This document shows, piece by piece, positions 2,744 through 58,046 of a stretch of DNA of 64,000 nt; position 1 is the stretch's first letter, and each line of letters starts with the position of its first letter. This DNA is from Gemmatimonadales bacterium (GTDB lineage Bacteria > Gemmatimonadota > Gemmatimonadetes > Gemmatimonadales > GWC2-71-9). Location: contig DASTUF010000084.1 of assembly GCA_035759745.1 (NCBI GenBank), positions 10,784 through 74,783 on the forward strand, given 5' to 3'. Made by a program: the position numbers and the translations under genes. The notes under the pieces are model-generated. The model made no database searches. It saw nothing but the letters and a program-made list of their open reading frames with translations, and had not been told where the DNA came from.

Positions 2744-3230
2744 ACGGCGGCCGGCGTTGGTGCTGGCGGCCATCCTGCTGGCCGTTGGCTGCCAGCCGCC
2801 CCCCCCGGAAACCAGCGCCGACCAGCCGCCGGCTGAGCATCCGGTGGCTGGCAGCTGGCGGGTCGAATTCACGCTCGACAGCGTTCGCAGCGGAACCGGG
2901 CCGTGGACGCCGGCCGATACCGTGAACGTGGTGGGCCAGCTGATTCTGGCTGGCCCCGACACCGGGCAGGCAGTAATGCTCACCGGCAGCTCGGATTTTG
3001 ACTTCACGCCGATGCTGGGCAGGCAGATTTCATGTTACGAGCCGGGCCCGGTGGAAGTCCGGGTCGGAAGAATCGATGAACGGTTCAACCTGCACTTCAC
3101 ACCCGGAGCCGCTGATTGCGGCTTCGGCGCGACCGTGGGCTGGAGCGGTGACTCCCTGACCGGGCGCTGGGGCGAAGCGTCGATCGCGGGGCCGGTGGCC
3201 ATGGGGAGGGTGGTAATGATCCACAGATGA
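2718..3230 (+). CDS. hypothetical lipoprotein
   Basis: N-terminal signal peptide with lipobox LLAVGC. Overlaps the gdh 3' end, and the C-terminal codons run into the left hairpin arm at 3219. Confidence 0.55.
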   Translation: MSSWASSRKRRPALVLAAILLAVGCQPPPPETSADQPPAEHPVAGSWRVEFTLDSVRSGTGPWTPADTVNVVGQLILAGPDTGQAVMLTGSSDFDFTPMLGRQISCYEPGPVEVRVGRIDERFNLHFTPGAADCGFGATVGWSGDSLTGRWGEASIAGPVAMGRVVMIHR

Positions 3231-3315
3231 AACTGATGTATACTCGATGAAGCTGATGTTTGGGTGAACAGCCGACCATCAGCTTCATCAATGTTCATCC
3301 ACTTCATCTGTGGAT
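3219..3315. repeat. long imperfect hairpin built from GATGAAN/CTGATGT-type heptamers (AT-richer member of the heptamer-hairpin family)
   Basis: ATCCACAGATGAA...GATGAAGCTGATG (3219-3260) pairs with CATCAGCTTCATC...TTCATCTGTGGAT (3277-3315). Lies between the lipoprotein stop and the RBS of the next gene. Confidence 0.8.
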
Positions 3316-3327
3316 CTGGAGGCTCCC

Positions 3328-3579
3328 ATGGCCAAGTGCGAAGTCTGCGGCAACGCTTACTACCTCTCCTTCGACGTCGTCGCCGCCGGCGTGACCCATA
3401 CGTTCGATTCCTTCGAGTGCGCCATCCACAAACTGGCCCCGACCTGCGCCCACTGCGGCTGCCGCATCATCGGCCACGGTATCGAGGCCAACGGCACCTT
3501 CTACTGCTGTGCTCACTGCGCCCACCAGGAGGGCGCCACCAAGGTTCGCGACAACGAGGCCCATGCCGCGTCGGACTGA
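3328..3579 (+). CDS. small Cys/His-rich putative metal-binding protein
   Basis: MAKCEVCGN...FECAIHKLAPTCAHCGCRIIGHG...FYCCAHCAHQ. GGAGG RBS at 3317-3321. The ORF-track GTG start at 3310 lies inside the hairpin, so ATG 3328 is preferred. Confidence 0.7.
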   Translation: MAKCEVCGNAYYLSFDVVAAGVTHTFDSFECAIHKLAPTCAHCGCRIIGHGIEANGTFYCCAHCAHQEGATKVRDNEAHAASD

Positions 3580-4006
3580 ATTGCTCGCGCTGATCGCGCT
3601 GGTGGCCCTTGTCGGCTGCGACCGTCGGCGGCAGATGATGCCGCCCGACGGCGCCGATACCGGCGTTGCGATCCTGGACAGCATCCCGACCATCGAGATC
3701 CTCTCGCCTGCGGGGACCGATACGCTGGTGGAGGGCCGTACCCACGTGATCCGCTGGACCGCGTCGGGCGTGCAAACCCTGGACATCGGTGCCGCCATCG
3801 GCGGCAAGGACAAGGGTCATCTCGGCATCGCCATCCCCGCCAGCCCCGATACGCTCGTGTGGACCGTTCCGGAGGGATTCGTTTCCGGCGTCGGCCTCGA
3901 GGCATCGTCCAATGCGCGACTGATGTTCGAGTCGCGCGATCCCGCGGGCGCGCACGCCGAGTCCGAACCATTCACCATCGTGGCCCAGCCGTCCATCGCC
4001 CCATGA
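3563..4006 (+). CDS. hypothetical lipoprotein
   Basis: Internal Met gives MPRRTELLALIALVALVGC (signal peptide plus lipobox). Overlaps the upstream gene by 17 nt. Confidence 0.6.
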   Translation: MPRRTELLALIALVALVGCDRRRQMMPPDGADTGVAILDSIPTIEILSPAGTDTLVEGRTHVIRWTASGVQTLDIGAAIGGKDKGHLGIAIPASPDTLVWTVPEGFVSGVGLEASSNARLMFESRDPAGAHAESEPFTIVAQPSIAP

Positions 4007-4218
4007 CATCCGACTCCGACTTCGACCTGATGCCGCTCGTGGCCGCGGGGGTGGTGCTGGCCGCCGCCTTCCTGGCCCGGCGCTGGCTCCGGAAGCACAC
4101 CGACATCCCCAACGCCTTCCTGGCTGTCGGGGAGGAGCTCATTGTGCCCGTAGTGGCCACGTGGGCCGTGACCCAGGTAGAGCGCCGCAGGCTCCCGCGC
4201 TACGCATCCCGTGCGTGA
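4003..4218 (+). CDS. small hypothetical membrane protein
   Basis: ATG at 4003 overlaps the upstream stop. One hydrophobic helix (LMPLVAAGVVLAAAFLA). No recognisable family. Confidence 0.4.
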   Translation: MTSDSDFDLMPLVAAGVVLAAAFLARRWLRKHTDIPNAFLAVGEELIVPVVATWAVTQVERRRLPRYASRA

Positions 4219-4423
4219 CATCGACGACGACGCCACGGCTGAAGGAGCGGTGGAGCTGCACTGCCCCTGGTGCGGCGAGCCTCACACACTCGAACCCGAT
4301 CCGTCCGGCGGCGCAGTTCAGGAATACGTCGAGGACTGCCCGGTATGCTGCAATCCCTGGCTGGTCAAAGTCCGATTCGCGGCTCCCGGACTTGCCGATG
4401 TGACGCTCGACCGGGCACAATAG
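4211..4423 (+). CDS. CPXCG motif-containing cysteine-rich protein
   Basis: HCPWCGE...QEYVEDCPVCCNPW matches the Cys_rich_CPXG family signature. The GTG start overlaps the upstream stop. Confidence 0.75.
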   Translation: MRDIDDDATAEGAVELHCPWCGEPHTLEPDPSGGAVQEYVEDCPVCCNPWLVKVRFAAPGLADVTLDRAQ

Positions 4424-4428
4424 CCGCA

Positions 4429-4911
4429 ATGGCCACCAGCCTGTTCACCATTCCGGTCACGACCATCGACGGCCGCACCACCACCCTGGAACCGTGGCGG
4501 GGGCAGGTGCTGCTGATAGTGAATGTCGCGAGCCAGTGCGGCTTCACGCCGCAGTATGAAGGACTGGAGGCGCTGCATCGCGCCCACGCCCCACAGGGGC
4601 TCGCGGTGCTTGGCTTCCCCTGCGACCAGTTCGGCCACCAGGAGCCGGGCGACGAGGCCGAGATCCGGGACTTCTGCCGGCTCACCTACGACGTGACGTT
4701 CCCGCTGTTCGCCAGGATCGAAGTCAACGGGCCCGGCACGCATCCACTCTATCGCGAGCTCAAGCGCGCTCGGCGCGGCTTTCTGGGCACCGGCAACATC
4801 AAGTGGAACTTCACCAAGTTCGTGGTGGCTCGCTCGGGTCAGGTGGTCCAGCGCCACCCGCCAACCCGCACCCCGGAGCAACTGCAACCCGGACTCCTGA
4901 AACTGCTCTGA
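4429..4911 (+). CDS. gpx: glutathione peroxidase
   Basis: Internal Met at 4429 gives MATSLFTIPV...LIVNVASQCGFTPQYEGLEAL...LGFPCDQFGHQEPG...WNFTKF, the classical GPx motifs. Confidence 0.9.
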   Translation: MATSLFTIPVTTIDGRTTTLEPWRGQVLLIVNVASQCGFTPQYEGLEALHRAHAPQGLAVLGFPCDQFGHQEPGDEAEIRDFCRLTYDVTFPLFARIEVNGPGTHPLYRELKRARRGFLGTGNIKWNFTKFVVARSGQVVQRHPPTRTPEQLQPGLLKLL

Positions 4912-4921
4912 ACTTCTCGCT

Positions 4922-4984
4922 CTGATCCCTGATCCCAGGTCCCTGACCCCTGACCCCACGCCTCACGTCCCACGCCTCACGCCC
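4922..4984. repeat. single-armed array of nine tandem heptamers (CTGATCC x2, CAGGTCC, CTGACCC x2, CACGCCT, CACGTCC, CACGCCT, CACGCCC)
   Basis: Read directly from the sequence; period 7 with no gaps, beginning 11 nt after the gpx stop. No complementary arm nearby. Confidence 0.9.
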
Positions 4985-5114
4985 TTCCTCGGTTCAATCC
5001 GCAACTCGCGTGACCTGCGCCACAGGCAACCCGGCCGCACTATGCCAGATATGACGGGCTGGTATCGTCACTGTGACGATTCCCCAATGGCACATTCACA
5101 ATTGGAGTTGCTGC

Positions 5115-5510
5115 ATGCTGAAGACGATCCTTGCCGCAGATCTGCGGTTCGCCGCTCGGAAGAGCGGCTTTCTGGCGTTGCTGGCGCTTGCCTCGCTGAC
5201 TGTTGCGGCATGCGACGATGACACCAACGAACCCGAAGTGGGCAATCTCGACGTTACCGTGACGGTCACCGGCGAGGGCGCCGACGCTGACGGCTTCGAC
5301 GTCACGGTTGGAACAGCTTCAATCGGCCCGGTAGCGGCCACTGGCGGCACCGTGTCCGCCACGGCCCTGGCCACTGGCGATACGCAGGTCACGCTGACCG
5401 GCCTGGACGCCAACTGCTCGGTGGATTCCGCCACCAAGACCGCTACGATTACCGATGGCGACACCACCGACGTGACGTTCGAGGTGAGCTGCTCCGCCGT
5501 AGCGGTATAG
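5115..5510 (+). CDS. hypothetical lipoprotein
   Basis: MLKTILAADL...LALASLTVAAC gives a signal peptide plus lipobox. The mature part is Thr/Asp/Gly/Val-rich and looks beta-rich. Confidence 0.6.
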   Translation: MLKTILAADLRFAARKSGFLALLALASLTVAACDDDTNEPEVGNLDVTVTVTGEGADADGFDVTVGTASIGPVAATGGTVSATALATGDTQVTLTGLDANCSVDSATKTATITDGDTTDVTFEVSCSAVAV

Positions 5511-5572
5511 TTTTCCTCCGGGGCGCGGCCTCCCTGTGAGGTCGTGGCCCCGCTCGTCGCGGAGGTAGGCCC

Positions 5573-5794
5573 ATGTCGGTGAAGGGACGGAAGCCCGCCA
5601 AGAAGCAGGCTCGCAAGTACGGCGAAGCGGCAGGGAAGTGGGTGGAACGTGCCATGCGTCGTCGCAAGAAGGGCACGCTCCGCAGCGGACCGGGCGGCAA
5701 GGGTGGCAAGGTGAAGAGCCGCGAGCAGGCGATCGCGATCGGACTGTCCGAAGCTCGCGAGAAGGGAGCGAAGGTGCCCAGGAAGAAGTCGTGA
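5573..5794 (+). CDS. DUF6496-like small basic protein
   Basis: Lys/Arg-rich 73 aa with the SREQAIAIGLSEAREKGAKVP motif typical of that family. Confidence 0.65.
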   Translation: MSVKGRKPAKKQARKYGEAAGKWVERAMRRRKKGTLRSGPGGKGGKVKSREQAIAIGLSEAREKGAKVPRKKS

Positions 5795-5988
5795 GCTTCT
5801 GGAGCCGCTTGTTCGGCCCGCGCGAGACACCCGAGGAAACGGTGCAGCGCACTCGCCGAGCCCTGGAACTGATGGACTCCGGCAAGACCGACGAGGAAGT
5901 GGAACGCGCGCTCTACATGGACGGAGTCCCGGTAGAGCGCGCGCGTGCGTTGGTCGCCGAGGTACGACGAGTAAAAGGTGAAAGGTGA
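5791..5988 (+). CDS. small hypothetical protein
   Basis: A GTG at 5791 overlaps the upstream TGA (GTGA). The 65-aa helical-looking product ends inside the hairpin arm. Confidence 0.35.
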   Translation: MSFWSRLFGPRETPEETVQRTRRALELMDSGKTDEEVERALYMDGVPVERARALVAEVRRVKGER

Positions 5989-6036
5989 ACAGTGAACGGG
6001 AAGCCCTGATCACCGTTCACCTTTCACGCTTCACCT
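5973..6036. repeat. heptamer hairpin (GGTGAAA/GGTGAAC flavour) between convergent genes
   Basis: AAAAGGTGAAAGGTGAACAGTGAACGG (5973-5999) pairs with CCGTTCACCTTTCACGCTTCACCT (6013-6036). Both flanking stop codons lie inside the arms. Confidence 0.85.
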
Positions 6037-8053
6037 ACGGGGTCAGCGGCCTGGTCTCCGGCTCGATCTTCACAATCCACAGGCCGTTGTTGTTGTCATT
6101 CACGTACGCCAGCCCGTCCTTCACCACTACGCCCCACGTGTTGGGCGAGTTCTTCACTTCGCCGTCCATGTCGCCCGTGTGCACGTGGACGATCTCGCGA
6201 TTCTGGGCCCGGAGATCACCCCGCAGCTCGCCGCTGATATCGAAGGCGCGGAACCCGCCCTGGTACGCCCCCATGTAGAGCGTGTCGCCCGCCACCCACA
6301 CGTTGTGCACCCCACCATACTCCGGTTCGTACCACGCCACCGAGCGGGGCTGCTCCATGTCCGACACGTCAATCACCTGCAGGCGGCCGTAGGCGCGCCC
6401 TGCCGCTGCGTCCTTGGCGCCCTTCACCCCGGCGCCGGGGAACACCTCGTCGGCGATGAACACATAGTCGTTGTGGCGCCACGCGGTGTGGGTGCCACGG
6501 ATGAAGCCGGGGCCGCCGACCGCCTCGACTTCCCTATACAGCGCGTTGAGGTCGTACTTGTACTGGGTCACCATCTGGGGGTTGGACGGGCTGCCGCCCT
6601 TCACTCCATTGCCCACGTCGAGGATCACCAGCCCGTCGTTCCAGTAGGACAGGTATGCCAGGCCGTCCTTGATGTCGATGTCGTGCAGGGTACGGCCGGC
6701 ATCGGGCCGATCCGTGCGCCACTGCCCCACTTCCCTGGGATTCGCCGGGTCACCTATGTCCACCACGTGCATGGCGCCGGTGCCGTCGTTGGTGAGGTAC
6801 ACATGGGTGCCGTACTTCGGCTGCTGGTAGATGAACGCCGAGTGGACTCCGGCGTGGACGCCGTCGGTGAACTCCGCGACCACCTTCGGGTGGAGCGGGT
6901 CTTCCAGCGTGGCGATGACGATCCCGTTCTTGCGATCCGACGCGCCCTCGCGGGTGAACACCAGCGTCTTCCCGTCGGGCGTGGTCATCACGTCATTGAC
7001 TCGGCGGGTGTTGGTGACGACCGAGTCGGTCACCACCGGATTCGCCGGATCGCTGATGTCGATCGCGTACATCCGGTCTCCGCCTCGGCCCGTGCCGAGG
7101 TAGGCAGCCTTGCCGCTGGGGTGCACCCAGACCTCCTCGGTGCGGAAGAGCGATCGAGGCAGGCGACCCACCACCGTGGCTGGCCGGCGCACATCGCGCG
7201 GCGCCAGCGTGACCGCGGCGTCAGCGCTGCGGGTCCCGAAGCTCGCGGTGATCAGGTAGTCACCCGGCTCGTAACCCACGAACGCCCCGTCGGCATCGAT
7301 CGTCCCATTGCCAGGCGAGAAACTCCACTGCGGCGTGAGTCCGGCGATCTCTCTGCCGTTGGCATCGCGCGCCACAGCGGTGAGACGCAGCACGTCGCCC
7401 TCCTTCCCCTCCACGCGCGGGGGGCTGATCGCGACGCTGGCAACCGGGGTCGCCACGATCTCGACGGGCACTTCCGTGCGCACGTCGCCCACCGCCGCCG
7501 TGATGACGGCCCGGCCGGGGGCCAGCGCCATCACCACGCCATCTGCCGACACATCCGCCACCCGGGACGCCGAGCTGCGCCATGCGATCTGGTCATCCCG
7601 TTCGTCGCTCGCGGCGGACCACGACGTCGCCGACAGCCGCACACGCTGCCCGATGGCGAGCCGGGAGACTGACGGCGTCACGCTGATGCGGGCCGCCGGG
7701 CCCGGCACCATCCGGATCTGCAACCGCTCGAGATACGGCTTGGCCCCTGGCACGGTCGCGACCGCCCCCACCACGATGGAGCCGGTGGCGCCGGAACGCA
7801 CCAGGCCGCTGGTGTCCACCGAGCCTTCGAAATACCCGCCGGTCAGGAAGTAGCGGATGCTGGCGTTGGGCACCGGCTCGCCATTGGCGCCGAGCGCGCG
7901 CGCGCTCAGGCGCACGGAATCGCCCGCGACCACGGTGAGCTCGGAGCCCGAGGCAAAGGCAATGCGCGAAACGGGTGAGGCTGCCAGGGATGACGTGGGC
8001 GCTTGGGGCGCTTGCTGCATCAGCGCGGCGAGCGCCAGGAGACCTGTGAGCAT
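6035..8053 (-). CDS. secreted Ig-like (Big_2) domain plus LVIVD-repeat beta-propeller protein
   Basis: Signal peptide, N-terminal Big_2-like repeats (ITAAVGDVRTEVPVEIV), and C-terminal LVIVD-type repeats (GLVILDVGN, GLWIVKIE). Confidence 0.8.
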   Translation of the reverse strand: MLTGLLALAALMQQAPQAPTSSLAASPVSRIAFASGSELTVVAGDSVRLSARALGANGEPVPNASIRYFLTGGYFEGSVDTSGLVRSGATGSIVVGAVATVPGAKPYLERLQIRMVPGPAARISVTPSVSRLAIGQRVRLSATSWSAASDERDDQIAWRSSASRVADVSADGVVMALAPGRAVITAAVGDVRTEVPVEIVATPVASVAISPPRVEGKEGDVLRLTAVARDANGREIAGLTPQWSFSPGNGTIDADGAFVGYEPGDYLITASFGTRSADAAVTLAPRDVRRPATVVGRLPRSLFRTEEVWVHPSGKAAYLGTGRGGDRMYAIDISDPANPVVTDSVVTNTRRVNDVMTTPDGKTLVFTREGASDRKNGIVIATLEDPLHPKVVAEFTDGVHAGVHSAFIYQQPKYGTHVYLTNDGTGAMHVVDIGDPANPREVGQWRTDRPDAGRTLHDIDIKDGLAYLSYWNDGLVILDVGNGVKGGSPSNPQMVTQYKYDLNALYREVEAVGGPGFIRGTHTAWRHNDYVFIADEVFPGAGVKGAKDAAAGRAYGRLQVIDVSDMEQPRSVAWYEPEYGGVHNVWVAGDTLYMGAYQGGFRAFDISGELRGDLRAQNREIVHVHTGDMDGEVKNSPNTWGVVVKDGLAYVNDNNNGLWIVKIEPETRPLTP

Positions 8054-8185
8054 GCGGCCTGACTCGATGAGAGGGAATAAGTGGCCCTACGGGGCCCGCC
8101 CGGCGCAGGTTGCGGTCCGGGAAACCCGAACCGCCGCAGGGGCGTAGGTTACGGCCTATTCTACCCCCGACCCGGAGGTCATGCC

Positions 8186-8677
8186 ATGCGCCGTTCGATC
8201 GTCCTGCTGTTCGCTCTGGCTCTCGGTGGCACCGCCTCGGCCAGCGCCCAGGCCACGACCCCGGCCCCGGATCGGGCCGCCGACAGCGCTGCCGTGCTGG
8301 CCGTGGTCCACCGCGTCTTCGACGCCATGCGGAGCCGCGATTCAGCGCTGCTCCGCACCGCCTTTGCCGAGGACGCCCGGCTGTTCACGCCCGGCATGCG
8401 CGACGGCGCGCCGGTGGTGCACGCAGAACCCATCAACGGGTTCATCGAAGCCGTTGGCCAGCCCAGCGACTCGACCTGGGACGAGCGGATCTACGGAACG
8501 GAAGTTCGGCTCGACGGCGGCCTCGCCACCGTGTGGACCGAGTACGACTTTTTCCTCGGCAGCAAATTCCTGCACTGCGGCGTGGACGCCTTCCAGCTCG
8601 CGCGGTATCCCGATGGGTGGAAGATCACGAGCCTTGGGGACACGAGACAGCGGGAGGGGTGCCCCAAGAGACAGTAG
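8186..8677 (+). CDS. secreted NTF2-fold (SnoaL/DUF4440-like) protein
   Basis: Met at 8186 preceded by GGAGG. Signal peptide MRRSIVLLFALALGGTASASAQ. The C-terminal pattern (WTEYDF...CGVDAFQLAR..GWKI) is typical of NTF2-like folds. Confidence 0.7.
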   Translation: MRRSIVLLFALALGGTASASAQATTPAPDRAADSAAVLAVVHRVFDAMRSRDSALLRTAFAEDARLFTPGMRDGAPVVHAEPINGFIEAVGQPSDSTWDERIYGTEVRLDGGLATVWTEYDFFLGSKFLHCGVDAFQLARYPDGWKITSLGDTRQREGCPKRQ

Positions 8678-8680
8678 CAA

Positions 8681-8784
8681 GTGGGGAGTGGGGAGTGGGA
8701 AGTGGGGAGTGGGGAGTGGGGAGTGGGGAGTGGGAGGTGGTCTCTACTTCCTACTTCCCACTCCCCACTTCCCACTTCCCACTC
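8681..8784. repeat. heptamer hairpin (GTGGGGA/GTGGGAA flavour) with unequal arms
   Basis: The G-rich arm has 8 heptamers plus GTGG (8681-8740), then loop TCTC, then a C-rich arm TACTTCC x2, CACTCCC, CACTTCC x2, CACTC (8745-8784). The right arm encodes the last residues of the ligase. Confidence 0.9.
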
Positions 8785-10783: not shown

Positions 10784-10786
10784 GCG

Positions 10787-12735: not shown

Positions 12736-12741
12736 CGTCGC

Positions 12742-13872: not shown

Positions 13873-13882
13873 GCAGGAAAGT

Positions 13883-13953
13883 AGGCGTGGGGCGTGAGGC
13901 GTGCGGCGTGGGGGTTTTGCCTCACGCCCCAGGCCCCACGCCCCACGCCTCAC
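13883..13953. repeat. heptamer hairpin (GGCGTGG/GGCGTGA flavour)
   Basis: AGGCGTGGGGCGTGAGGCGTGCGGCGTGGGGG (13883-13914), loop TTTTG, then CCTCACGCCCCAGGCCCCACGCCCCACGCCTCAC (13920-13953). The upstream gene's stop lies inside the right arm. Confidence 0.9.
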
Positions 13954-14915: not shown

Positions 14916-14916
14916 A

Positions 14917-14966
14917 GGGGTCAGGGACTAGGGATCAGGGATGAAGTCCCTACGTCCCTCAAACCC
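14917..14966. repeat. GGGNNNN heptamer array (GGGGTCA GGGACTA GGGATCA GGGATGA) with a short complementary segment
   Basis: Read directly: four G3-4 runs at period 7, followed by AGTCCCTACGTCCCT. Confidence 0.8.
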
Positions 14967-14985
14967 GGAAGGGTTCGGCCCCTCC

Positions 14986-15018
14986 TACTTCCCACTCCCC
15001 ACTAACCACTCCCCACTT
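14986..15018. repeat. single-armed C-rich heptamer array (TACTTCC CACTCCC CACTAAC CACTCCC CACTT)
   Basis: Read directly. Lies 7 nt downstream of the tRNA-Phe 3' end in the minus-strand sense. Confidence 0.85.
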
Positions 15019-17457: not shown

Positions 17458-17547
17458 CTAGTGGGGGGTGGGAAGTGGGAAGTGGGCGGACCCACATTCC
17501 ACTTCCCACTCCCCACTCCCCACTCCCCACTTCCCACTTCCCACTAG
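17458..17547. repeat. heptamer hairpin (GTGGGAA/GTGGGGA flavour) bounded by CTAG...CTAG
   Basis: G-rich arm 17458-17486, loop CGGA, then a C-rich arm about twice as long (17491-17547). Starts 1 nt after the upp stop. Confidence 0.9.
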
Positions 17548-36548: not shown

Positions 36549-37930
36549 CTCCCCCGCATTCCCGTCCCTACGACAACGTCCTCGATACCGTCGGCTGGAC
36601 CCCGCTGATCCGGCTGTCCCGGGTCGGCGCCGGGATCCGCACCCCGGTGTATGGCAAGGCGGAGTACGCCAATCCGGGCGGCTCGGTGAAGGACCGCATC
36701 GGCCTCGCCATCATCGAGGCCGCCGAGCGGGCGGGCGAACTCAAGCCCGGCGGCACCGTGGTCGAGGGCACCAGCGGCAACACCGGCGTCGGGCTCGCCA
36801 TGGCGGCCGCGCTCAAGGGCTATCGCTGCATTTTCACCATGCCCGACAAGATGTCGCAGGAGAAGGTCCGGCTGCTCAAGGCCTACGGTGCCGAAGTGGT
36901 CGTGACGCCCACCGCGGTGCCGGCGGATCACCCCGACAACTACGTGATGAAGGCCAAGCACATAGTCCACGATACGCCGGGCGCCGTGCTGGCCAATCAG
37001 TTCTACAACCAGGTCAACCCGGAAGCACACTATGCCACCACCGGCCCGGAGATCTGGGAGCAGACCGAAGGCAAGGTGACCCATCTGGTAGCGGGCGCCG
37101 GCACCGGCGGGACCATCAGCGGCGCGGGAAAGTTCCTCAAGGAGAAGAATCCGAAGATCCGGGTCATCGCCGGCGACCCGGTCGGATCGCTCTACAGCGG
37201 CTACGCTGCGACCAGGACGATGGGCGAGGGCCACCCCTACAAGGTGGAAGGCATCGGCGGCGACAAGATCCCCACCACGGTCTGGTTCGACGTGATCGAC
37301 GAATGGCGCCAGCTGCCCGACAAGGCCTCGATGAGCATGGCCCGGCGGATCGCCCGTGAGGAGGGCATCCTGGTCGGCGGATCTGCCGGGCTCAATGTCC
37401 ACCTCGCGCTGGACGTGGCGCGCGAAGCGGATGATCCGGCAGCGTGCGTCGTCACCATCCTGTGCGACACCGGCGAGCGCTACCTGTCGAAGTTGTTCAA
37501 CGATGCGTGGATGGAAGAAAACCAGATGCTGGATCGCGCCCCGGTCACGGTGGAGCAGCTCCTCGCCGAGCGCGATGGCGGCGCACCCGAACTGGTGAGC
37601 GTGGCGCCGGCGGCGGCAGTGCGCCAGGCGCTCAACCTGATGAGTTCATGGGGCGTGAGCCAGATTCCCGTCATCGACAACGGGACGTCCGTGGGGGGAC
37701 TCATCGAAGGCCAGCTCATGGCCCGCGCGCTGGCACAGCCCGCCATGCTGGACCGCCCGGTGCGCGAGGTGATGGAAGCGCCCTTCCCCGAAGTCGACGC
37801 CGCATTCCCGGTGGACCGGCTGGCACCGGCGCTCACCCGCGAGAGCCCGGCTGCGTTGGTGACCCGCGACGGCAAGGTGATCGGGATTGTCAGTCGGTAT
37901 GATCTATTGAAAAGGCTCATTGGAGCCTGA
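36545..37930 (+). CDS. cystathionine beta-synthase (PLP-dependent CysK/CBS family plus tandem CBS domains)
   Basis: The PLP-Lys region NPGGSVKDR, the GTSGNTG loop, and a C-terminal CBS pair. Confidence 0.9.
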   Translation: MTPPHSRPYDNVLDTVGWTPLIRLSRVGAGIRTPVYGKAEYANPGGSVKDRIGLAIIEAAERAGELKPGGTVVEGTSGNTGVGLAMAAALKGYRCIFTMPDKMSQEKVRLLKAYGAEVVVTPTAVPADHPDNYVMKAKHIVHDTPGAVLANQFYNQVNPEAHYATTGPEIWEQTEGKVTHLVAGAGTGGTISGAGKFLKEKNPKIRVIAGDPVGSLYSGYAATRTMGEGHPYKVEGIGGDKIPTTVWFDVIDEWRQLPDKASMSMARRIAREEGILVGGSAGLNVHLALDVAREADDPAACVVTILCDTGERYLSKLFNDAWMEENQMLDRAPVTVEQLLAERDGGAPELVSVAPAAAVRQALNLMSSWGVSQIPVIDNGTSVGGLIEGQLMARALAQPAMLDRPVREVMEAPFPEVDAAFPVDRLAPALTRESPAALVTRDGKVIGIVSRYDLLKRLIGA

Positions 37931-37988
37931 GGCGTGAGGCGTGGGGAAATACCTCACGCCCCACGCCCTACGCCCCACGCCCCACACC
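37928..37988. repeat. heptamer hairpin (GGCGTGA/GGCGTGG flavour)
   Basis: TGAGGCGTGAGGCGTGGGG (the first TGA is the CBS stop), loop AAATAC, then CTCACGCCCCACGCCCTACGCCCCACGCCCCACACC. The right arm is about twice the length of the left. Confidence 0.9.
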
Positions 37989-40909: not shown

Positions 40910-42256
40910 GCCGACGCAGAACTCGCTGAACACCCGTCCCAGCACCTCCTCGACATCCACCACCCCGATCAGCTCATCCAGCGCCAGCACGGCCTGCCGG
41001 ACGTGATGGGCGCACAGCACCGCGTCGCCGAGTGGCGCCGCGAGTTGAGCGCGGGCCACACCCAGCTCGCCGCGTGCACGTTCCAGCGCCACCCGGTGGC
41101 GGGTGCGCGTGAGCATCGGCTCCAGATCCGCCAGCTGCACCCGGTCACCGAAGAGTCTGTCGGCGATCGTGCGCCGGAGGTCCGCCAATCCTTGCCCCGT
41201 CACTACCGATACTCCATCTGACCGACCGGTCAGATCCGCCTTGGTATGGACAATGAGTTCAGAGTTGAGAGTTGAGAGCTGAGAGTTGAGATCCTTGGTC
41301 GGGACGAGGGTGGTCACTCTCAACTCTTGACTCTCAACTCTCGACTCGTCCGCACACACTAGCACTAAATCCGCACTATCCAGCCACCGTCGACTCACTG
41401 CGACACCCAGAGCCTCGATTCGGTCACTGGTGTCGCGAATGCCGGCCGTATCGACCAGCCGGACCGGCCAGCCGAGGAAGGTAACGTGCGCCTCGATCGC
41501 GTCCCTGGTGGTGCCAGGAACTTCGGTGACTATGGCTCGCTCGGAGCCCAGCAGCGCATTGAAGAGCGAGGACTTGCCCGCGTTTGGCCGACCGGCCAGT
41601 ACGACAAGGGCGCCCTCGCGGAGCCGAGTTCCTTCCGGCGCGGTGGACAGTAATGTGTCAATTCTGGCGCAGGTCTGGTCCAGCTGACTCTGGAGCCTGT
41701 CGGGCGCGATGGGCCCGTCGTCTTCGCCGGGGAAATCGATCTCGTAGCTGAGAAGGCCGAGCAGGTCGAGGAGCGAGCTGCGGAGTTCGAGGATGCGGCG
41801 GGAAAGGTTGCCGTCGAGCTGGGCCAGCGCTGCGCGCGCCTGGGCCGGAGCGGTCGCATCGATCAGGTCACCCACCGCCTCGGCCTGGACCAGGTCCATG
41901 CGGCCGTTGAGCACCGCACGGCGGGTGAACTCTCCAGCGGCGGCCTGGCGGGCACCGGCGGCGATGAGCGCGGCCAGCAGTCGTTCCGGAGCCACCAGAC
42001 CGCCGTGGCAGGAGAACTCGACGGTGTCCTCTCCGGAGTAGCTGGCCGGTGCGGGAAAGACGGTGTACAGCCCGCGGTCGATGGGCCGGTCGCCCGAATC
42101 GTGAAAGGTCGCGAGCTGGGCGACCCGAGGTTCGGCCCGGAATCCCTGCACTATTTTCGCCGCGATCTCGAATGCTCCGGGGCCCGCCAGCCGCACGATC
42201 GCCAGCGCCGAGCGGCCCGGCGGTGTGGCGAGCGCGACTATCGCGTCCCCGAACAT
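40904..42256 (-). CDS. mnmE: tRNA modification GTPase MnmE
   Basis: N-terminal DAIVALATPPG, G1 GRPNAGKSS, G3 DTAG, G4-like TKAD, and the C-terminal CVGK. Contains a heptamer hairpin in frame. Confidence 0.95.
   Translation of the reverse strand: MFGDAIVALATPPGRSALAIVRLAGPGAFEIAAKIVQGFRAEPRVAQLATFHDSGDRPIDRGLYTVFPAPASYSGEDTVEFSCHGGLVAPERLLAALIAAGARQAAAGEFTRRAVLNGRMDLVQAEAVGDLIDATAPAQARAALAQLDGNLSRRILELRSSLLDLLGLLSYEIDFPGEDDGPIAPDRLQSQLDQTCARIDTLLSTAPEGTRLREGALVVLAGRPNAGKSSLFNALLGSERAIVTEVPGTTRDAIEAHVTFLGWPVRLVDTAGIRDTSDRIEALGVAVSRRWLDSADLVLVCADESRVESQELRVTTLVPTKDLNSQLSTLNSELIVHTKADLTGRSDGVSVVTGQGLADLRRTIADRLFGDRVQLADLEPMLTRTRHRVALERARGELGVARAQLAAPLGDAVLCAHHVRQAVLALDELIGVVDVEEVLGRVFSEFCVGK
41255..41347. 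repeat. heptamer hairpin (GAGTTGA flavour) located inside the mnmE coding sequence
   Basis: GAGTTCA GAGTTGA GAGTTGA GAGCTGA GAGTTGA (41255-41289), a 25-nt loop, then ACTC TCAACTC TTGACTC TCAACTC TCGACTC (41316-41347). Confidence 0.9.
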
Positions 42257-44785: not shown

Positions 44786-44854
44786 GCGTGAACGGGAGCA
44801 GCAATCGCGTGAAAAGGTGGCCTCCCTTTCACGCTTTTTCCTTTCCGTTCACGC
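44786..44854. repeat. nested hairpin (GCGTGAA flavour) in the rpmH-dnaA intergenic region
   Basis: The outer stem pairs GCGTGAACGG (44786-95) with CCGTTCACGC (44845-54). The inner stem pairs GCGTGAAAAGG (44807-17) with CCCTTTCACGC (44824-34). Confidence 0.8.
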
Positions 44855-46582: not shown

Positions 46583-47695
46583 ATGAAGTTCTCGATCACG
46601 CGCGAGCAGATGCAGGAAGGACTCGTCGCCGTCGCGGCAGCGGTGCCGTCGAAGACGACACTGCCGGTGCTCTCGAATATCCTGGTCGAGGCGGGCAAGG
46701 ACGGGATCCGGCTCTCGGGCACCGACCTCGACGTCTCGGTGAGCACGACCGTGAGCGCATCGGTCGACCAGGAAGGCGCCATCACGCTGCCGGCCCGCAA
46801 GCTGGTCGAGATCGTGCGCGAACTTCCCAGCGCCTCGATCCGGATCACAGGATCGGGTGAGCAGCGGGTGTCCATCGAGTGCGGCCGGTCGCGCTTCAAG
46901 CTGCTGGGCCTGCCCAAGGAAGAGTTCCCCGCCTTTCCGGCAGTCAAGTTCGACAAGGCCTGGCGGGCGACATCGGGCGACCTCCAGAAGCTCATCTCCC
47001 ACGTGGCGTTCGCCGCCAGCACCGAGGAAAGCCGCCCGATTCTCAACGGCGTGCTCTGGGAGCTCCGGCCTGAACGGATGCGCATGGTCGCCACCAACGG
47101 CCATCGCCTCGCCAAGATGGACGTCCCCGCCACCGCAGGCGGTGGCGCCCAGGCCGACCTCATCGTACCACCCAAGGCCCTGGAGCAGATCCGCCGGCTG
47201 TTTGGTTCCGATGAGGATGTCGAGATCGCCCGGAGCGAGAATCACCTCGCCTTCCGGACCGGTTCGACCCAGATCTACACCCGGCTGATCGACGGACCGT
47301 ATCCCAACTACGAGCAGGTGATTCCGCGGGAAAACGACAAGGTCGCCACCACCGACAAGGCGGCGATCGCGGCGGCGCTGCGGCGCATGAGCATCGTCGC
47401 CAGCGACCAGACCCACCGGATCCGGCTGGCCTTCGCCAATGGCTCGTGCAAGCTGTCGGTGCAGACCCCTGACCTGGGCGAGGCCCAGGAAGAGGTGACG
47501 GTGAGTTACGAGGGGGACCCGCTGGAGATCGGCTTCAACGCGGCCTACATGCTCGAGATCCTGAAGTTCATGCCCACCGACGAGGTGCGGTTCACCTTCA
47601 AGGCACCCGAGCGCGCGGCGACCTGCGAACCGGTGGGCTGGGACGACCCGGCCAGCTACCTCGCCCTGGTCATGCCACTCAGGCTCGTAGACTAG
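46583..47695 (+). CDS. dnaN: DNA polymerase III subunit beta (sliding clamp)
   Basis: MKFSITREQ...TLPVLSNILVEA...NGHRLA...MPLRL. RBS GAGGAGAGG upstream. Confidence 0.97.
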   Translation: MKFSITREQMQEGLVAVAAAVPSKTTLPVLSNILVEAGKDGIRLSGTDLDVSVSTTVSASVDQEGAITLPARKLVEIVRELPSASIRITGSGEQRVSIECGRSRFKLLGLPKEEFPAFPAVKFDKAWRATSGDLQKLISHVAFAASTEESRPILNGVLWELRPERMRMVATNGHRLAKMDVPATAGGGAQADLIVPPKALEQIRRLFGSDEDVEIARSENHLAFRTGSTQIYTRLIDGPYPNYEQVIPRENDKVATTDKAAIAAALRRMSIVASDQTHRIRLAFANGSCKLSVQTPDLGEAQEEVTVSYEGDPLEIGFNAAYMLEILKFMPTDEVRFTFKAPERAATCEPVGWDDPASYLALVMPLRLVD

Positions 47696-47712
47696 ACTAG
47701 ACTAGACTAGAC
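47688..47712. repeat. (TAGAC)5 pentanucleotide tandem repeat containing the dnaN stop codon
   Basis: TAGAC x5, read directly. This puts TAG in all three plus-strand frames. Confidence 0.9.
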
Positions 47713-47718
47713 TGGGAT

Positions 47719-47804
47719 GTGATTGGTGAAGGGTGAACGGTGATGGGTGATTGGGCGACTGCGCCTCCCTGCCCCGTTCACTCATCACCGCTCACTTTTC
47801 ACTC
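47719..47804. repeat. heptamer hairpin (GTGATTG/GTGAAGG/GTGAACG flavour)
   Basis: GTGATTG GTGAAGG GTGAACG GTGATGG GTGATTG (47719-53) pairs with CCGTTCAC TCATCAC CGCTCAC TTTTCAC TC (47774-804). The stop of the convergent gene lies in the right arm. Confidence 0.85.
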
Positions 47805-51029: not shown

Positions 51030-51053
51030 GGGCCCCCGAAGTTCGGGGGCCCA
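51030..51053 (-). terminator. rnpB terminator hairpin
   Basis: On the minus strand GGGCCCCCGAACTTCGGGGGCCC is followed by ATTTCTGTTG, directly after the 3' strand of the P1 stem. Confidence 0.6.
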
Positions 51054-51418
51054 TCGGGCCAGGCCGTAAGCCGAGTTCTGTTCCGTCCGCCGGAGCGGAG
51101 GGATGATCATCTGTCTGGGACGGTCGTCGCCGACCGCCTCGTGCAGCCTACCCGCGGCTCGGTCGGTGTGGGTCACACCTCGCCGCTTATTTGGCCTTGC
51201 TCCGGCTGGGGGTTACCGTGCCACCACCGTTACCGGCGGTGCGGTGGGCTCTTACCCCACCGTTTCACCCTTACCCGACGGTTGCCCGCCTGGCGGTCTG
51301 TTCTCTGTGGCCCTGTCCGTCGCCTTGCGGCGCCCAGGCGTTACCTGGCAGCCTACCCGTTGGAGCTCGGACTTTCCTCCAGACGCTTCCGCGCCCAGCG
51401 ACCATCACGCCCGGCCCA
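51054..51418 (-). ncRNA. rnpB: RNase P RNA, bacterial type A
   Basis: The reverse complement contains the universally conserved blocks GGAGGAAAGTCCGAGCTCC, GGGTAGGCTGCCAGGTAACGCCTGG, CACAGAGAACAGACCGCC, GGTAAGGGTGAAACGGTGGGGTAAGAGCCCACCGC, CCGGAGCAAGGCCAAATA, AGACAGATGATCATCC and ACAGAACTCGGCTTA. P1 pairs GGGCCGGGCGT with ACGGCCTGGCCC. Ends are accurate to about 5 nt. Confidence 0.92.
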
Positions 51419-51460: not shown

Positions 51461-51502
51461 CACTTCCCAATTCCCACTTCCCACTTCCCACTTCCCACTT
51501 CA
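51461..51502. repeat. single-armed heptamer array (CACTTCC x4, CAATTCC, CACTTCA); G-rich on the minus strand
   Basis: Read directly. The kinase stop codon is the last triplet of the array, and no complementary arm is nearby. Confidence 0.9.
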
Positions 51503-55626: not shown

Positions 55627-56935
55627 GCAGGATCCGTCCGGCGCACCGTCCCAGCCCCACCCGGCGGAACCCCTCGCGCTCGGCCCAGCCAGCCAGGATC
55701 ACTTCGTCGCCGTCCTCCAGGAAGCCGCGCTGTTCGCCTCCCGGTAGTGACAGCGGGTCCTTGCCTCGGCGGGTCAGCTCCAGCAGGCAGCCCCGGCTGC
55801 CAGGAGTGGCGCCGCTGACGGTCCCACTGGCAAAGAGGTCGCCCGGCCGGAGGTTGCAGCCATTGCTGGCGTGGTGCGCCAGCATCTGCCCCAAGGTCCA
55901 GTACATGTCGACGAAGCTGCCGCGCGAGACCCGGATGGGGTCCGTGTTCGCCGCCCGCATCGCCTCGCTCCGGAGCCAGACCTCGAGCGTCAGCGCCAGA
56001 CCGCCCTGGGCCTCATTCGCGGGGTCGAAGAGATGTGGCAGCGGGGCGGGATCGCCCTCGGCCCGGCGGAAGACCGGAGCCCGGAACGGCGCCAGCGCTT
56101 CCAGCGTCACCACCCAGGGGCCGATGGTCGTGGCGAAGCTCTTGGCCAGAAAGGGGCCCAGCGGCTGGTACTCCCATGCCTGCACATCGCGGGCGGACCA
56201 GTCATTCACGAGACACACACCGAAGATGCGAGACTCCGCCTCCGCCAGCGGCACTGATTCACCCAGCGGGTTGCCGGGTCCGACGAAGGCTCCGAGTTCG
56301 AGCTCGTAGTCCAGCTGGCGCGACGGGCCGAACGACGGCTCGGTGGCGTCGGGCGGCTTGCGCTGCCCGGCGGGCCGGCGCACGGTCTGGCCCGAAACCA
56401 CGATGGACGACGCGCGGCCGTGATAGCCGATTGGCACCCACTTGTAGTTGGGCAGCAGCGGATTGTCGGGCCGGAACATCGCGCCGACGTTGGTGGCGTG
56501 ATGCACTGAGGCGTAGAAGTCGGTGTAATCGCCGATCTGTGCCGGCAGCAGCAGCTCGGCCTGGTCCTGCGGCACCAGCATCTCGTCCGCATGTTCCCGC
56601 GCTGCGGTGGCCATCAACCCCTTGCTGCCCAGCAGGGACTGCAAGGCGCGCCGCAGTTCACTCCAGGCGGGCGCACCAAGCGCCATGAGCGGGTTGAGCA
56701 CTGGCGCGTCGCACGCCGCGCCGGCCTCGCCCAGGTCCCAGTGCCGATGTGCCAGTGCGACGTCGAGGATCCTGTCGCCGATAGCCACGCCCACCCGTGG
56801 CGCCTCGGTGCCCTGCTTCCGGCGGAACACGCCGAAGGGGAGGTTCTGCAAGGGGAAATCGGTCGCCGGATCGTTGGCCGATTCGATCCAGCTCTCCAGT
56901 GACGGGTCGTGGGTCTCGTTGATCTCGATGGTCAT
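55559..56935 (-). CDS. fahA: fumarylacetoacetase
   Basis: Start at MTIEINETHDPSLESWIESAN...FPLQNLPFGVF, with the FAH C-terminal domain (...GDLFASGTVSG...GCLLE...). The roughly 20-aa C-terminal tail overlaps the convergent AraC gene by 68 nt. Confidence 0.9.
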   Translation of the reverse strand: MTIEINETHDPSLESWIESANDPATDFPLQNLPFGVFRRKQGTEAPRVGVAIGDRILDVALAHRHWDLGEAGAACDAPVLNPLMALGAPAWSELRRALQSLLGSKGLMATAAREHADEMLVPQDQAELLLPAQIGDYTDFYASVHHATNVGAMFRPDNPLLPNYKWVPIGYHGRASSIVVSGQTVRRPAGQRKPPDATEPSFGPSRQLDYELELGAFVGPGNPLGESVPLAEAESRIFGVCLVNDWSARDVQAWEYQPLGPFLAKSFATTIGPWVVTLEALAPFRAPVFRRAEGDPAPLPHLFDPANEAQGGLALTLEVWLRSEAMRAANTDPIRVSRGSFVDMYWTLGQMLAHHASNGCNLRPGDLFASGTVSGATPGSRGCLLELTRRGKDPLSLPGGEQRGFLEDGDEVILAGWAEREGFRRVGLGRCAGRILPTGGAPLPGDGTPATSVRRVES

Positions 56936-56936
56936 A

Positions 56937-57845
56937 TCAGAGCAATCCCAGCGCGCGGAGGTCATCCAGCGGCTCGGTGAAGGAGCAGGAGCCGAATGAG
57001 ATCGCCACCCGGCTGCGAACCCGGTCGATGGTGGCACGATCGGCGTGGAAGTGACTCCAACCCACGCCGTCGGCCTCGAAGGTGAAGGCGTCCGCCTCGC
57101 GCTCCACCAGCACCGCCTCCAGCTCCTCGAGCGAAAGGCCCTGATCGGCCAGCGCCGCGGCGACCAGCAGGTTGAGGTGGCCGTACATTGTGCCTTCCGC
57201 ACTGCCCGGTTCGTAGGTCAGCCGGTGCTCGCCCAGCAGGGGATGATGCAACCCGGCGGTGGCCTTGAACGGCACCGCCTGATCAACACAACTGCGAATG
57301 AAGCGCGCAACGGCGCGAGGTGGTGGGAAGGCGTCGGCCGTGGTGCCGCCGGTGCGGATCTTGGCGCGCGCGTCGAGGTTGGCCAGTGCGGCGATCGCGT
57401 CGGTGTGGTCGTCCTGCCATGGGAGCTCGATGTAGACGGTGACGTCTGCCGGGGCAGACCGGACCCGCAGCTCCAGTTCGGCGAGATCCGAGGCGCGAGC
57501 TTCGAGGGTGTCGATCACCGCGCGGCCCAGCGCCGCCGTCGCATGGCGTTCATTGAAGTTGAAAATCAGTTCGGCGTCATGGGCCGGATCCCGGCCGCTG
57601 AGCAGCGCGATGGTCCACGGCTCGGCGTCCTGCTCGCGGGGAAGGAGTGCGGCAGCGGCGCCCTCGAATTCATCGAGGCGACCGGACGTGACAATGAACC
57701 GGCCCAGGGCCCAGGCGTCGGGTCCCGCGCGATACTGGGCAAACCGCTCCACGGCGCCGGCCATCTCGAGCTGCGCCGGCGGAAAGAGGCCGGCGTAATC
57801 GATCGCGTGGCGGAGGAGGGCGCGGATGGTGTCGGGTTCTGACAT
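56937..57845 (-). CDS. conserved hypothetical protein (no recognised family)
   Basis: 302-aa ORF with good coding character, ending 1 nt before the fahA start. Motifs KIRTGG and FKATAGLHHP noted. Confidence 0.6.
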   Translation of the reverse strand: MSEPDTIRALLRHAIDYAGLFPPAQLEMAGAVERFAQYRAGPDAWALGRFIVTSGRLDEFEGAAAALLPREQDAEPWTIALLSGRDPAHDAELIFNFNERHATAALGRAVIDTLEARASDLAELELRVRSAPADVTVYIELPWQDDHTDAIAALANLDARAKIRTGGTTADAFPPPRAVARFIRSCVDQAVPFKATAGLHHPLLGEHRLTYEPGSAEGTMYGHLNLLVAAALADQGLSLEELEAVLVEREADAFTFEADGVGWSHFHADRATIDRVRSRVAISFGSCSFTEPLDDLRALGLL

Positions 57846-57914
57846 GGTGGGAATATAGGGCGGCGGCTCGGCGCTGCGGCGTCCTGAGCCCAGCGAACGA
57901 GCCGAGCTCTCACG

Positions 57915-58046
57915 TTCACCACAGAGCCACAGAGAACACAGAGATATCGAGCAATCGTTTTGCAGGTTTGCCGCGGTCGGCGTTGCCTTGCGATGGCACC
58001 CACAACAAACAGTTCCTCTCCGTGTGCTCTGTGGCTCTGTGGTTGA
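57915..58046. repeat. long-loop inverted repeat (CACAGAG/CCACAGAG flavour)
   Basis: TTCACCACAGAGCCACAGAGAACACAGAG (57915-43) pairs with CTCTCCGTGTGCTCTGTGGCTCTGTGGTTGA (58017-46), separated by about 73 nt. Lies in a divergent intergenic region. Confidence 0.85.

Follow-up and report, generated by a model that had tools for sequence, protein, structure and literature searches.

Polar palindromes built from tandem 7- and 8-nucleotide units around dnaA in Gemmatimonadales

A 64,000-nt stretch of DNA from a Gemmatimonadales bacterium (contig DASTUF010000084.1, positions 10,784 to 74,783; hereafter the window) carries arrays of tandem 7-nt units, many of them paired with an array of reverse-complement units so that a hairpin is built from repeats. 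These elements form a real, non-chance class, which recurs with 7-nt and 8-nt units in other members of the order. There, the G-rich array forms the 5' arm of nearly all inverted pairs, arrays persist at orthologous sites while their units are exchanged, and copies also lie inside coding sequences. In the favoured reading, which is given a probability of about 0.5, the elements are long-unit (7-8 nt) microsatellite palindromes that arise from replication and repair and have acquired a secondary use at transcript ends, rather than a dedicated genetic signal. The polarity, the 8-mer variants in relatives and the genome-specific unit families go beyond the initial annotation of this stretch, which had been made from the window sequence only.

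Tandem Repeats Finder (TRF) reported 19 period-7 arrays in the window, compared with a mean of 2.6 and a maximum of 5 in 50 dinucleotide shuffles of the same sequence. Thirteen arrays scored at least 40, a value not reached in any of the shuffles. Array starts were called at 4922, 4957, 5974, 6010, 8680, 8746, 13884, 13919, 14916, 14987, 17460, 17491, 37928, 37955, 41255, 41316, 47719 and 51461. When the 13 loci listed in the initial annotation were folded as single-stranded DNA, ten were more stable than all of the 200 shuffles made for each locus (z from -4.4 to -9.5). The single architecture that had been proposed for all of them, i.e. an arm of head-to-tail heptamers, a short loop and an arm of the complementary units, nevertheless describes only part of a heterogeneous set. 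Three hairpins (3219, 44786 and 57915) lack period 7, and at three arrays the partner arm is absent or non-complementary (4922, z -0.9; 14917, z -1.5; 51461). The reported inequality of arms was reproduced by TRF, which counted 3.9 and 7.9 copies in the two arms at 17458 and 2.3 and 4.4 at 37928. Twelve of the 13 loci are intergenic, most of them abutting stop codons, and according to a rough gene map of the window about half of the spacers of at least 60 nt hold an element.

The window lies close to the replication origin, which itself was not located, in the genome of an uncultured Gemmatimonadales bacterium from soil. Its DnaA shares 77-88% identity with the DnaA proteins of 80 metagenome-assembled genomes, almost all of which carry the label Gemmatimonadales or Gemmatimonadota. 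As relatives, 80 dnaA loci of other Gemmatimonadales were used (1.24 Mb in total; labels L001 etc.). In these sequences, 79 arrays of period 7 and 56 of period 8 scored at least 45, compared with only one or two each for periods 6, 10 and 11. Inverted pairs, defined as arrays with reverse-complement units at most 150 nt apart, were found 87 times, or 83 times after removal of duplicates (58 of 7-mers and 25 of 8-mers), and six additional pairs came from independent Ku loci in soil metagenomes. The elements have a median length of 107 nt, and their arms average 4.3 copies without asymmetry between left and right (41 versus 40). Some pairs enclose a long or structured centre.

The pairs have a strong polarity. 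In 76 of the 83 pairs the 5' arm holds more G than C, and in 77 it is purine-rich; with the six Ku-locus pairs, all of which have a G-rich 5' arm, the count rises to 82 of 89. Since the element is a palindrome, the same polarity holds on both strands, and the G-rich strands run 3' toward the centre. Neighbouring 7/8-mer arrays were likewise arranged G-then-C in 70 cases, C-then-G in six, CC in five and GG in one. Plain inverted repeats from the same sequences (stem of at least 11, without tandem repeat) showed no such preference, neither overall (344 versus 342) nor in spacers (78 versus 63), and the polarity therefore belongs to the arrays and not to hairpins as such. Isolated arrays gave no clear fit to a translation-based rule with G-rich arrays after stops and C-rich arrays before starts (31:20 and 15:13), hence it is a property of the pairs. 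Complementarity is not a prerequisite: ten of the 70 convergent neighbours are non-complementary, and in L061 every one of the four possible arm combinations of the 8-mer GGCGRTTR with the 7-mer GCGGGAA is found, including unpairable long arrays of 76 and 103 nt. The window element at 14917 belongs to this type. Repeat-built hairpins also occur on phage DNA of other hosts, without the polarity seen in Gemmatimonadales. Sixteen IMG/VR viral contigs (L165-L180, 42-61% G+C) contain (GGTGAAC)x3, several form heptamer hairpins, and in some of the latter the C-rich arm comes first (hairpins e.g. L170 4200-4330, L179, L180 and L166).

The geometry of these pairs is exactly that of a healed double-strand break at which a repeat-adding polymerase or reverse transcriptase would have extended both 3' ends with G-rich repeats before the ends were joined, much as in a telomere fusion: in 82 of 89 pairs, two G-strands run 3' toward the junction. 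Unequal or mismatched arms, genome-specific units and variable centres would follow as well. This model was down-weighted to a highly improbable one because the centres are often conserved older sequence, as in the cores found after dnaN, the core at 14917 and the GTGACC centre in mnmE (all described below). Moreover, many unit families coexist per genome, no repeat-adding enzyme was found, and the presence of Ku and LigD in the window is circumstantial. We also know of no repeat-adding enzyme of this kind.

Units tend to be shared within a genome. An identical canonical unit was found in 24% of within-genome element pairs compared with 1.9% between genomes, and units differing by at most one base in 37% and 10%, respectively. 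In L015, for instance, four loci are built from GCTAACA-type units and two from GAGAAGT, while their centres and flanks are unrelated. For the window, it had been stated that the sequence differs by locus. Several families are indeed present, but GGGRAGT recurs at four loci, GRGGCGT and GGTGAAN at three each and GGGRTCA at two; the relatives hold dozens of further units, 8-mers included. On the G strand, the 7-mers are composed of 45% G, 26% A, 15% T and 14% C, and a search for a common unit motif with optimised rotation returned only the trivial result that a purine/G-rich unit contains one or two pyrimidines.

Genome-specific units common to loci with unrelated centres could serve as binding sites at which a protein or RNA acting in trans recognises them, on DNA or on RNA, with fixed polarity, for example as a nucleoid or recombination signal akin to the polar Chi and KOPS sites, or through an RNA-binding protein that accommodates one unit per domain. 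The strict polarity, which extends to non-complementary arms, the orientation of both G-rich strands of a convergent pair with 3' to the centre, and the approximately 4.3 units per arm would suit such a reader; four units are also preferred in Xanthomonas, according to PMC4692102. At least six unrelated unit families, however, coexist in the 64-kb window, the consensus is uninformative beyond being purine-rich with one or two pyrimidines, lone arrays follow no clear rule of orientation with respect to genes, and no candidate factor was identified, which makes binding arrays an unlikely explanation. Units might also be set in trans, with one or a few genome-encoded determinants dictating which unit is used, and in which polarity, across numerous unrelated loci. 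Candidates would be an RNA or DNA template for a repeat-adding or template-switching polymerase, or a unit-selecting factor. This proposal is compatible with the data because units are shared within and not between genomes, mismatched arms are drawn from the genome's repertoire and polarity is array-specific, yet it is credited with little probability. If it were true, the arrays would be the output of an undescribed repeat-writing or repeat-reading system, in principle common to Xanthomonas and cyanobacteria, and a trans-acting determinant would constitute a new kind of genome-writing or genome-reading system.

The turnover of units becomes apparent at orthologous sites. The metagenome contig L085, about 81-86% identical to window positions 2221-11539, has elements at the four orthologous sites without exception. 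The 3219 hairpin is largely conserved in sequence, whereas the units differ at the three array sites. At the 4922 site, (CCAACCC)x3 and (CGTGACT)x6 replace (CTGATCC) and (CACGCCT); at the 5973 site, a single 8-mer array, CTTACCGC, stands in place of the heptamer hairpin; and at the 8681 site, the hairpin is kept with a change from GTGGGGA to GTGATRR in both arms. Likewise, a hairpin directly follows dnaN in most of 77 relatives. In many of them it is a plain hairpin with the recurring core GACGGTGCCC...GGGCACCGTT, which is flanked by arrays in L015 and L008. L043 and L038 have arrays on either side of another GC-rich hairpin, which is followed by a short T-rich stretch, and in other relatives the hairpin is wholly array-built and starts at the stop codon. 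The arrays thus flank older cores in these post-dnaN hairpins and around the small core hairpin at window position 14917, which was counted for the mutational reading. In the rpmH-dnaA spacer, many relatives carry an element of a G-array and a C-array just upstream of a conserved dnaA promoter-like sequence.

Copies are also found inside genes. The window element at 41255..41347 lies within mnmE (40904-42256, - strand), where its 93 nt are in frame and correspond to 31 codons of a variable loop ahead of TKAD, the G4 (NKxD) position of the GTPase domain. The arrays found in this loop are unrelated to one another (GAGTTGA in the window, GGCGCGG in L059, GGCGGTT-type units in L061, GAGGGAC in L078 and GGCTCGNC in L071 and L080), and in most relatives the loop is shorter and free of repeats. 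L001 and L013, which have no array, show the ancestral sequence, to which the window element is similar in its outermost unit (GAGTCGA) and its centre (GTGACC). Arrays have arisen independently in this loop in several genomes. In yidC, inverted 8-mer arrays of 100-185 nt with differing units occupy the linker between the first transmembrane segment and the periplasmic domain in 11 relatives (L006, L007 at 8685-8844, L010, L018-L021, L024, L028, L040 and L047; orthologous to about 43700-43870 of the window). They have predicted folding energies of -75 to -142 kcal/mol and are in frame, being translated as a low-complexity peptide. The window's own yidC linker holds no array. The arms have stayed complementary even in yidC and mnmE, although there is little reason to expect selection for an RNA hairpin in these genes, and this points to a mechanical homogeniser.

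The occupancy of coding loops resembles insertion and recalls the Rickettsia palindromic elements, and one unit can be found at several loci of a genome. Both observations could be accommodated by non-autonomous mobile elements of MITE- or REPIN-like type with terminal inverted repeats made of tandem units. The copies, however, have only the repeat unit in common, with unrelated centres, lengths and flanks; target-site duplications were not observed; different genomes carry elements with different units at orthologous sites; and the mnmE element keeps ancestral sequence at its edges and centre. Mobility is thus regarded as quite improbable.

A role in the formation of transcript ends was among the original proposals for the elements, which had been suggested to act as factor-independent bidirectional terminators or 3' mRNA stabilisers. 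The underlying contact with stop codons is well founded. Stops lie within or at an arm at 3228, 6035, 8751, 13950, 47803 and 51500, those at 8675 and 17455 are located 0-3 nt ahead of an arm, and the TGA of the CBS gene (37928-37930) is the first triplet of its arm. The stop at 8751 had been assigned to a kinase gene; it is indeed inside an arm, but the gene appears to encode a LigD-type ATP-dependent ligase. The lack of a T-tract was also upheld: a terminator scan of positions 1-20000 yielded eight terminator-like sites versus 7.6 expected, none coinciding with an element, and direct reading found no T-run after the arms at 8784, 17547 and 37988. A search of the window against Rfam at gathering thresholds, as had been advised, matched no family at any element and found only RNase P RNA and tRNA-Phe. 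The placement between convergent and co-directional genes, in turn, applies to most loci, with the exceptions of 41255 inside mnmE and of 44786 and 57915 between divergent genes.

It is possible, although doubtful, that the elements are primarily selected RNA structures, i.e. bidirectional terminators without U-tract and/or 3' mRNA stabilisers, with repeats being just a simple way to evolve a long stem. Of the 12 intergenic window elements, nine or ten abut or overlap a stop codon, and in all three large convergent spacers with heptamer arrays (5973, 8681 and 47719) both stops are spanned. The window shows no excess of canonical T-tract terminators, most of the 77 relatives have some hairpin right after dnaN, and the arms remain complementary as units change. 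In Xanthomonas, the repeats are on average 28 nt from the upstream open reading frame and mostly transcribed, as PMC4692102 states. The distribution in the relatives, by contrast, does not favour transcript ends. Seventeen of the 83 pairs lie inside called coding sequences, 49 in co-directional, eight in convergent and nine in divergent spacers, compared with a background of 411 co-directional, 117 convergent and 121 divergent spacers. Convergent spacers are hence no richer than divergent ones (about 7% each, versus 12% for co-directional spacers). Copies also occur in frame in mnmE and yidC and between divergent promoters. Among 66 pairs with a defined transcribed strand, the sense RNA folded better in 28 and the antisense RNA in 38 (p=0.11), so that no bias toward the sense strand exists; the same test on the window alone was inconsistent. 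Single arrays and mismatched arms are unable to fold, and plain hairpins, whose task is presumably the same, have no polarity. In addition, mycobacterial hairpins without U-tract terminate poorly in vitro. A dedicated class of terminators or 3' stabilisers is a poor fit because copies lie inside genes and in divergent spacers, arms can be mismatched, neither strand is preferred and plain hairpins do not have the polarity. Still, elements that abut stops likely act as transcript-end hairpins in a secondary use. The array-specific polarity together with the absence of an RNA strand preference points to the making of the arrays, and not to hairpin function.

The favoured mutational origin could proceed as follows. 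A short purine/G-rich run of units would expand by strand slippage beside or within a pre-existing short hairpin; a slippage-type origin, which had been considered from the start, agrees with the retention of arrays with changed units at orthologous sites and with the repeated origins in the mnmE loop. The opposite arm would then be held complementary by template switching within the palindrome (quasipalindrome correction), and not only by selection for pairing; we infer this process as the obvious candidate for the homogeniser. The product would persist where extra sequence is tolerated, namely in spacers up to the stop codon, in promoter-distal parts of divergent spacers and, in multiples of three, in flexible linkers. 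Elements downstream of genes would probably act secondarily as transcript-end hairpins, as a barrier to 3' exonucleases and possibly for some U-tract-independent termination. REP elements of E. coli have a comparable role at transcript ends. The polarity is tentatively attributed to polymerase stalling. Speculatively, a polymerase on either strand would copy the C-rich 3' template arm first and then meet the G-rich arm at the element centre, where a stall would favour fold-back copying of the arm just made. G-first palindromes would hence be self-perfecting and C-first palindromes would not.

Several points weigh against this mutational origin. The sharing of units within a genome is not predicted by simple local slippage and could arise if templates are switched between loci or if a determinant acts in trans. 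Neither the polarity nor mismatched arms drawn from the genome's repertoire are predicted by slippage itself. The element at 47719 showed no copy-number change among four same-strain assemblies (at least 99.8% identical), which are too close to inform, and hypermutability is therefore not demonstrated. The long positional conservation at the dnaN 3' end, in the rpmH-dnaA spacer and in the yidC linker could reflect selection. Finally, gene calls in the relatives came from a crude GC3-based heuristic, which makes the context counts approximate.

The closest precedent is found in Xanthomonas and Nostoc, whose G-rich heptamer repeats (GGGAATC and GGGGA(C/T)T, respectively) were described by Rehm et al. 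(2015, PLoS One, PMC4692102). Xanthomonas genomes contain 70-75 convergent array pairs each, which lie on opposite strands and can form stem-loops, while Nostoc has only a few inverted pairs; the novelty claimed for the window elements is lowered accordingly. Both sets share tandem G-rich 7-nt units with about four units per array, an intergenic location (89-93% in that study) near the stop of the upstream open reading frame, the lack of a known function, differences in length and sequence at the same spacer between related species, and the convergent arrangement. In contrast to those repeats, many unit families, 8-mers among them, rather than one consensus are present per genome here, and the phylum is Gemmatimonadota. 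The consensus GGGNATC / GGGGA(C/T)T is not matched: among the window units, only GGGATCA/GGGGTCA (4922, 14917) and GGGRAGT (8681, 14987, 17458, 51461) resemble it. Most units here would also be unable to form G-quadruplexes, at least four tracts of three or more G being present only in the GGGRAGT arrays and most units lacking G-runs altogether. Mismatched arms, in-frame copies in essential genes and the contrast with plain hairpins are not reported in the available part of that paper.

Other long simple sequence repeats are likewise related. An excess of heptanucleotides is reported for prokaryotes (Mrazek et al. 2007, as represented in citing papers), and tandem heptanucleotides are known as STRR sequences in Calothrix and Nostoc and as (GATAGRA)n satellites in Chloroflexus (PMC6749651). 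According to these sources, they are mainly intergenic period-7 arrays with lineage-specific units ascribed to slippage, but direct ones, for which a paired polar hairpin architecture is not defining. The elements were correctly set apart from REP/BIME, MITE and CRISPR sequences in the initial annotation, as no palindrome or internal sequence is shared and the 7-8-nt units are contiguous and without spacers. REP/BIME and REPIN sequences, known from enterobacteria and pseudomonads, are abundant extragenic palindromes as well, located after stops and between convergent genes as singlets and inverted doublets, and REP/BIME elements are known to stabilise upstream mRNA. REPs, however, are one conserved imperfect palindrome of 20-40 nt mobilised by RAYT, whereas only a 7-8-nt unit is common here. 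A gene for a RAYT (IS200/IS605-type) transposase was not noticed among the scanned open reading frames of the 64-kb window, for which no dedicated search was made. Unlike MITEs, the elements have no common internal sequence and no target duplications were seen, and the contiguous units differ from the 24-48-nt repeats of CRISPR arrays.

Quasipalindrome template switching in E. coli and yeast perfects imperfect inverted repeats and extends arm identity without selection (PMC7202029, PMC3820800). It would fit the complementary arms inside coding sequences but is described as a hotspot of point mutations and short-tract changes, and its action here would go beyond that. Intrinsic terminators share the stable GC-rich hairpin after a stop, and some relatives have a hairpin plus T-rich stretch as core; the window elements, by contrast, lack the 3' U-tract, have stems far longer than needed and also occupy positions other than 3' ends. 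In-frame repeats in permissive protein loops and linkers have parallels in the Rickettsia palindromic elements, which are copies of one mobile sequence, and in the tandem repeats of Borgs, which are direct and not inverted (PMC9879509). In the literature searched, no description of such elements was found for Gemmatimonadota. What appears to be new, hence, are the many unit families per genome, the 8-mers, the mismatched arms, the genome-specific repertoires, the polarity contrast with plain hairpins and the in-frame copies in essential genes.

Heptamer excess has been reported in many bacteria, with origin and role unsettled, and the present lineage offers an unusually rich and varied sample, with roughly one element per 5 kb. 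Any explanation is constrained by array-only polarity, mismatched arms, genome-specific units, persistence with unit turnover and tolerance in essential genes. If the mutational origin holds, the loci would offer a natural read-out of slippage and of template switching at hairpins, and would supply new protein-linker sequence. The elements may also break short-read assemblies and mislead gene callers and terminator predictors in Gemmatimonadota. The window itself is not an assembly oddity, because four Logan contigs from public sequencing runs are at least 99.8% identical to it and encode an identical DnaN. An assembly artefact was rejected, as the elements recur across independent short-read, long-read and Logan assemblies. 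The short-read Logan contig L084 of the same strain ends at window position 47698, exactly at the arrays that follow dnaN, which suggests that arrays are able to fragment short-read assemblies. L081 and L082 end at 51204 and 51268, within the RNase P RNA gene.

The window has a G+C content of 64-70% and includes mnmE, yidC, rnpA, rpmH, dnaA and dnaN. Two RNA genes were identified on the - strand by Rfam and ARAGORN, tRNA-Phe (15025-15097) and RNase P RNA (51051-51418). Heptamer hairpins of the regular type are found at several loci. At 5974..6036, a left arm of GGTGAAA/GGTGAAC (5974-5999) faces a right arm of TCACCTT units (6010-6036; z -7.1), which is ended by the stop of an LVIVD-repeat gene (6035-6037, - strand). 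The largest one, 8680..8784, occupies a convergent spacer and pairs (GTGGGGA)x7.9 at 8680-8734 with (ACTTCCC)x5.4 at 8746-8783 (z -9.5 as DNA; -95.8 kcal/mol for the RNA fold of 8681-8784), the stop of the LigD ligase gene (8751-8753, - strand) lying within the right arm. This ligase belongs to separate open reading frames for non-homologous end joining on the - strand, i.e. an ATP-dependent ligase (8751-9698), a LigD primase-polymerase (9695-10783) and Ku (10787-11626); no link between end joining and repeats was shown. At 13884..13953, (GGCGTGG)x4.3 opposes (GCCCCAC)x5.0 (z -7.2) between two - strand genes, with the stop of a YncE-like propeller gene (13950-13952) within the right arm.

The unequal hairpin at 17458..17547, (AGTGGGA)x3.9 versus (CCCACTT)x7.9 (z -5.6), fills the spacer from the upp stop (17455-17457) to a beta-CASP RNase gene (17560, + strand). 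That at 37928..37988, (TGAGGCG)x2.3 versus (CACGCCC)x4.4 (z -4.9), occupies the 65-nt spacer between the PALP-CBS gene and ddl. The mnmE element described above combines (GAGTTGA)x5.3 with (ACTCTCG)x4.6 (z -5.0; - strand). After dnaN, a pentamer array (TAGAC)x5.2 at 47688..47713 spans the stop codon (47693-47695) and directly precedes the heptamer hairpin at 47719..47804, whose left arm of GTGATTG/GGTGAAG/GGTGAAC/GGTGATG (47719-47751) is complemented at 47767-47804 (z -5.3) and whose right arm ends at the stop of a convergent YtxH-like gene (47803-47805). The pentamer array provides TAG in all reading frames.

Arrays without a complementary partner were found at three positions. At 4922..4983 (+ strand), two adjacent C-rich arrays, (CTGATCC)x5.1 at 4922-4957 and (CACGCCT)x3.9 at 4957-4983, begin 10 nt past the stop of a glutathione peroxidase gene and form no hairpin. 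The element at 14916..15017 reads on the - strand as (GGGGAGT)x4, the small core hairpin GAACCCTTCCGGGTTT and (CCCTGAT)x4. It lies directly 3' of tRNA-Phe and is taken as the trailer of this tRNA, because tRNA-Phe maps immediately 5' of it. At 51461..51501, a lone array without structure, (CACTTCC)x5.9 on the + and GGAAGTG on the - strand, is located between the stop of a gene of 1038 codons (51500-51502, - strand) and the 5' end of the RNase P RNA.

Of the hairpins without regular period 7, the one at 3219..3315 connects a 170-residue open reading frame, whose stop (3228-3230) is in the outer arm, with the next + strand gene, and a ribosome-binding site GGAGG follows just after it. It folds as DNA with -27.3 kcal/mol (z -7.1) and contains GATGAAR/CTGATGT motifs but no TRF period-7 array. 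Judged by eye, the internal repeats at 3219 and 44786 recur at intervals of about 10 and 21 nt. The long hairpin at 57915..58046 is built from 8-9-nt CACAGAG-type units, with arms at 57918-57944 and 58017-58043 (z -6.1) that enclose a centre of 72 nt. It lies between divergent genes (56937-57845 on the - strand, 58097 on the + strand). Its polarity is atypical, the C-rich arm coming first.

The hairpin at 44786..44854 (z -4.4) lies in the divergent spacer between rpmH (44562-44723, - strand) and dnaA (44950, + strand), directly upstream of the conserved dnaA promoter. It has no clean period 7 and is the degenerate counterpart of the array element seen in the rpmH-dnaA spacer of relatives. A conserved sequence upstream of dnaA, TTGACTTTTCCACA-N9-CGTAACATC, is present at 44880-44949 of the window and 260 nt upstream of dnaA in L001-L046; it resembles a -35/-10 promoter and is accompanied by the DnaA-box-like TTTTCCACA. 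GTCAAG motifs recur upstream of this promoter-like sequence. Their reverse complement contains TTGAC, possibly a -35-like motif directed toward rpmH. GTCAAG was also considered as a target duplication at the elements upstream of dnaA and rejected, since it is present in relatives without arrays too.

Three other repeats of the window may be mentioned. A perfect 24-nt inverted repeat (25382-25405 and 25469-25492, 63 nt apart) lies in the convergent spacer between 23913-25358 (+ strand) and 25503-26024 (- strand). Its arms are small palindromes themselves (GGCGCAC..GTGCGCC) and not tandem-built, and L001 has a similar hairpin after dnaN. A second REP-like family based on GGCGCAC...GTGCGCC was discarded, given that only this pair and the one site in L001 were found. 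At 15171-15220, a 9-nt tandem repeat, (GACCGCCCT)x5.6, which is also called with period 27, lies in an open reading frame region upstream of a DUF2911 gene and is presumably a coding repeat. A 21-nt tandem repeat (2.1 copies) at 62404-62447, within an open reading frame region of the - strand, probably encodes a repeat of seven residues.

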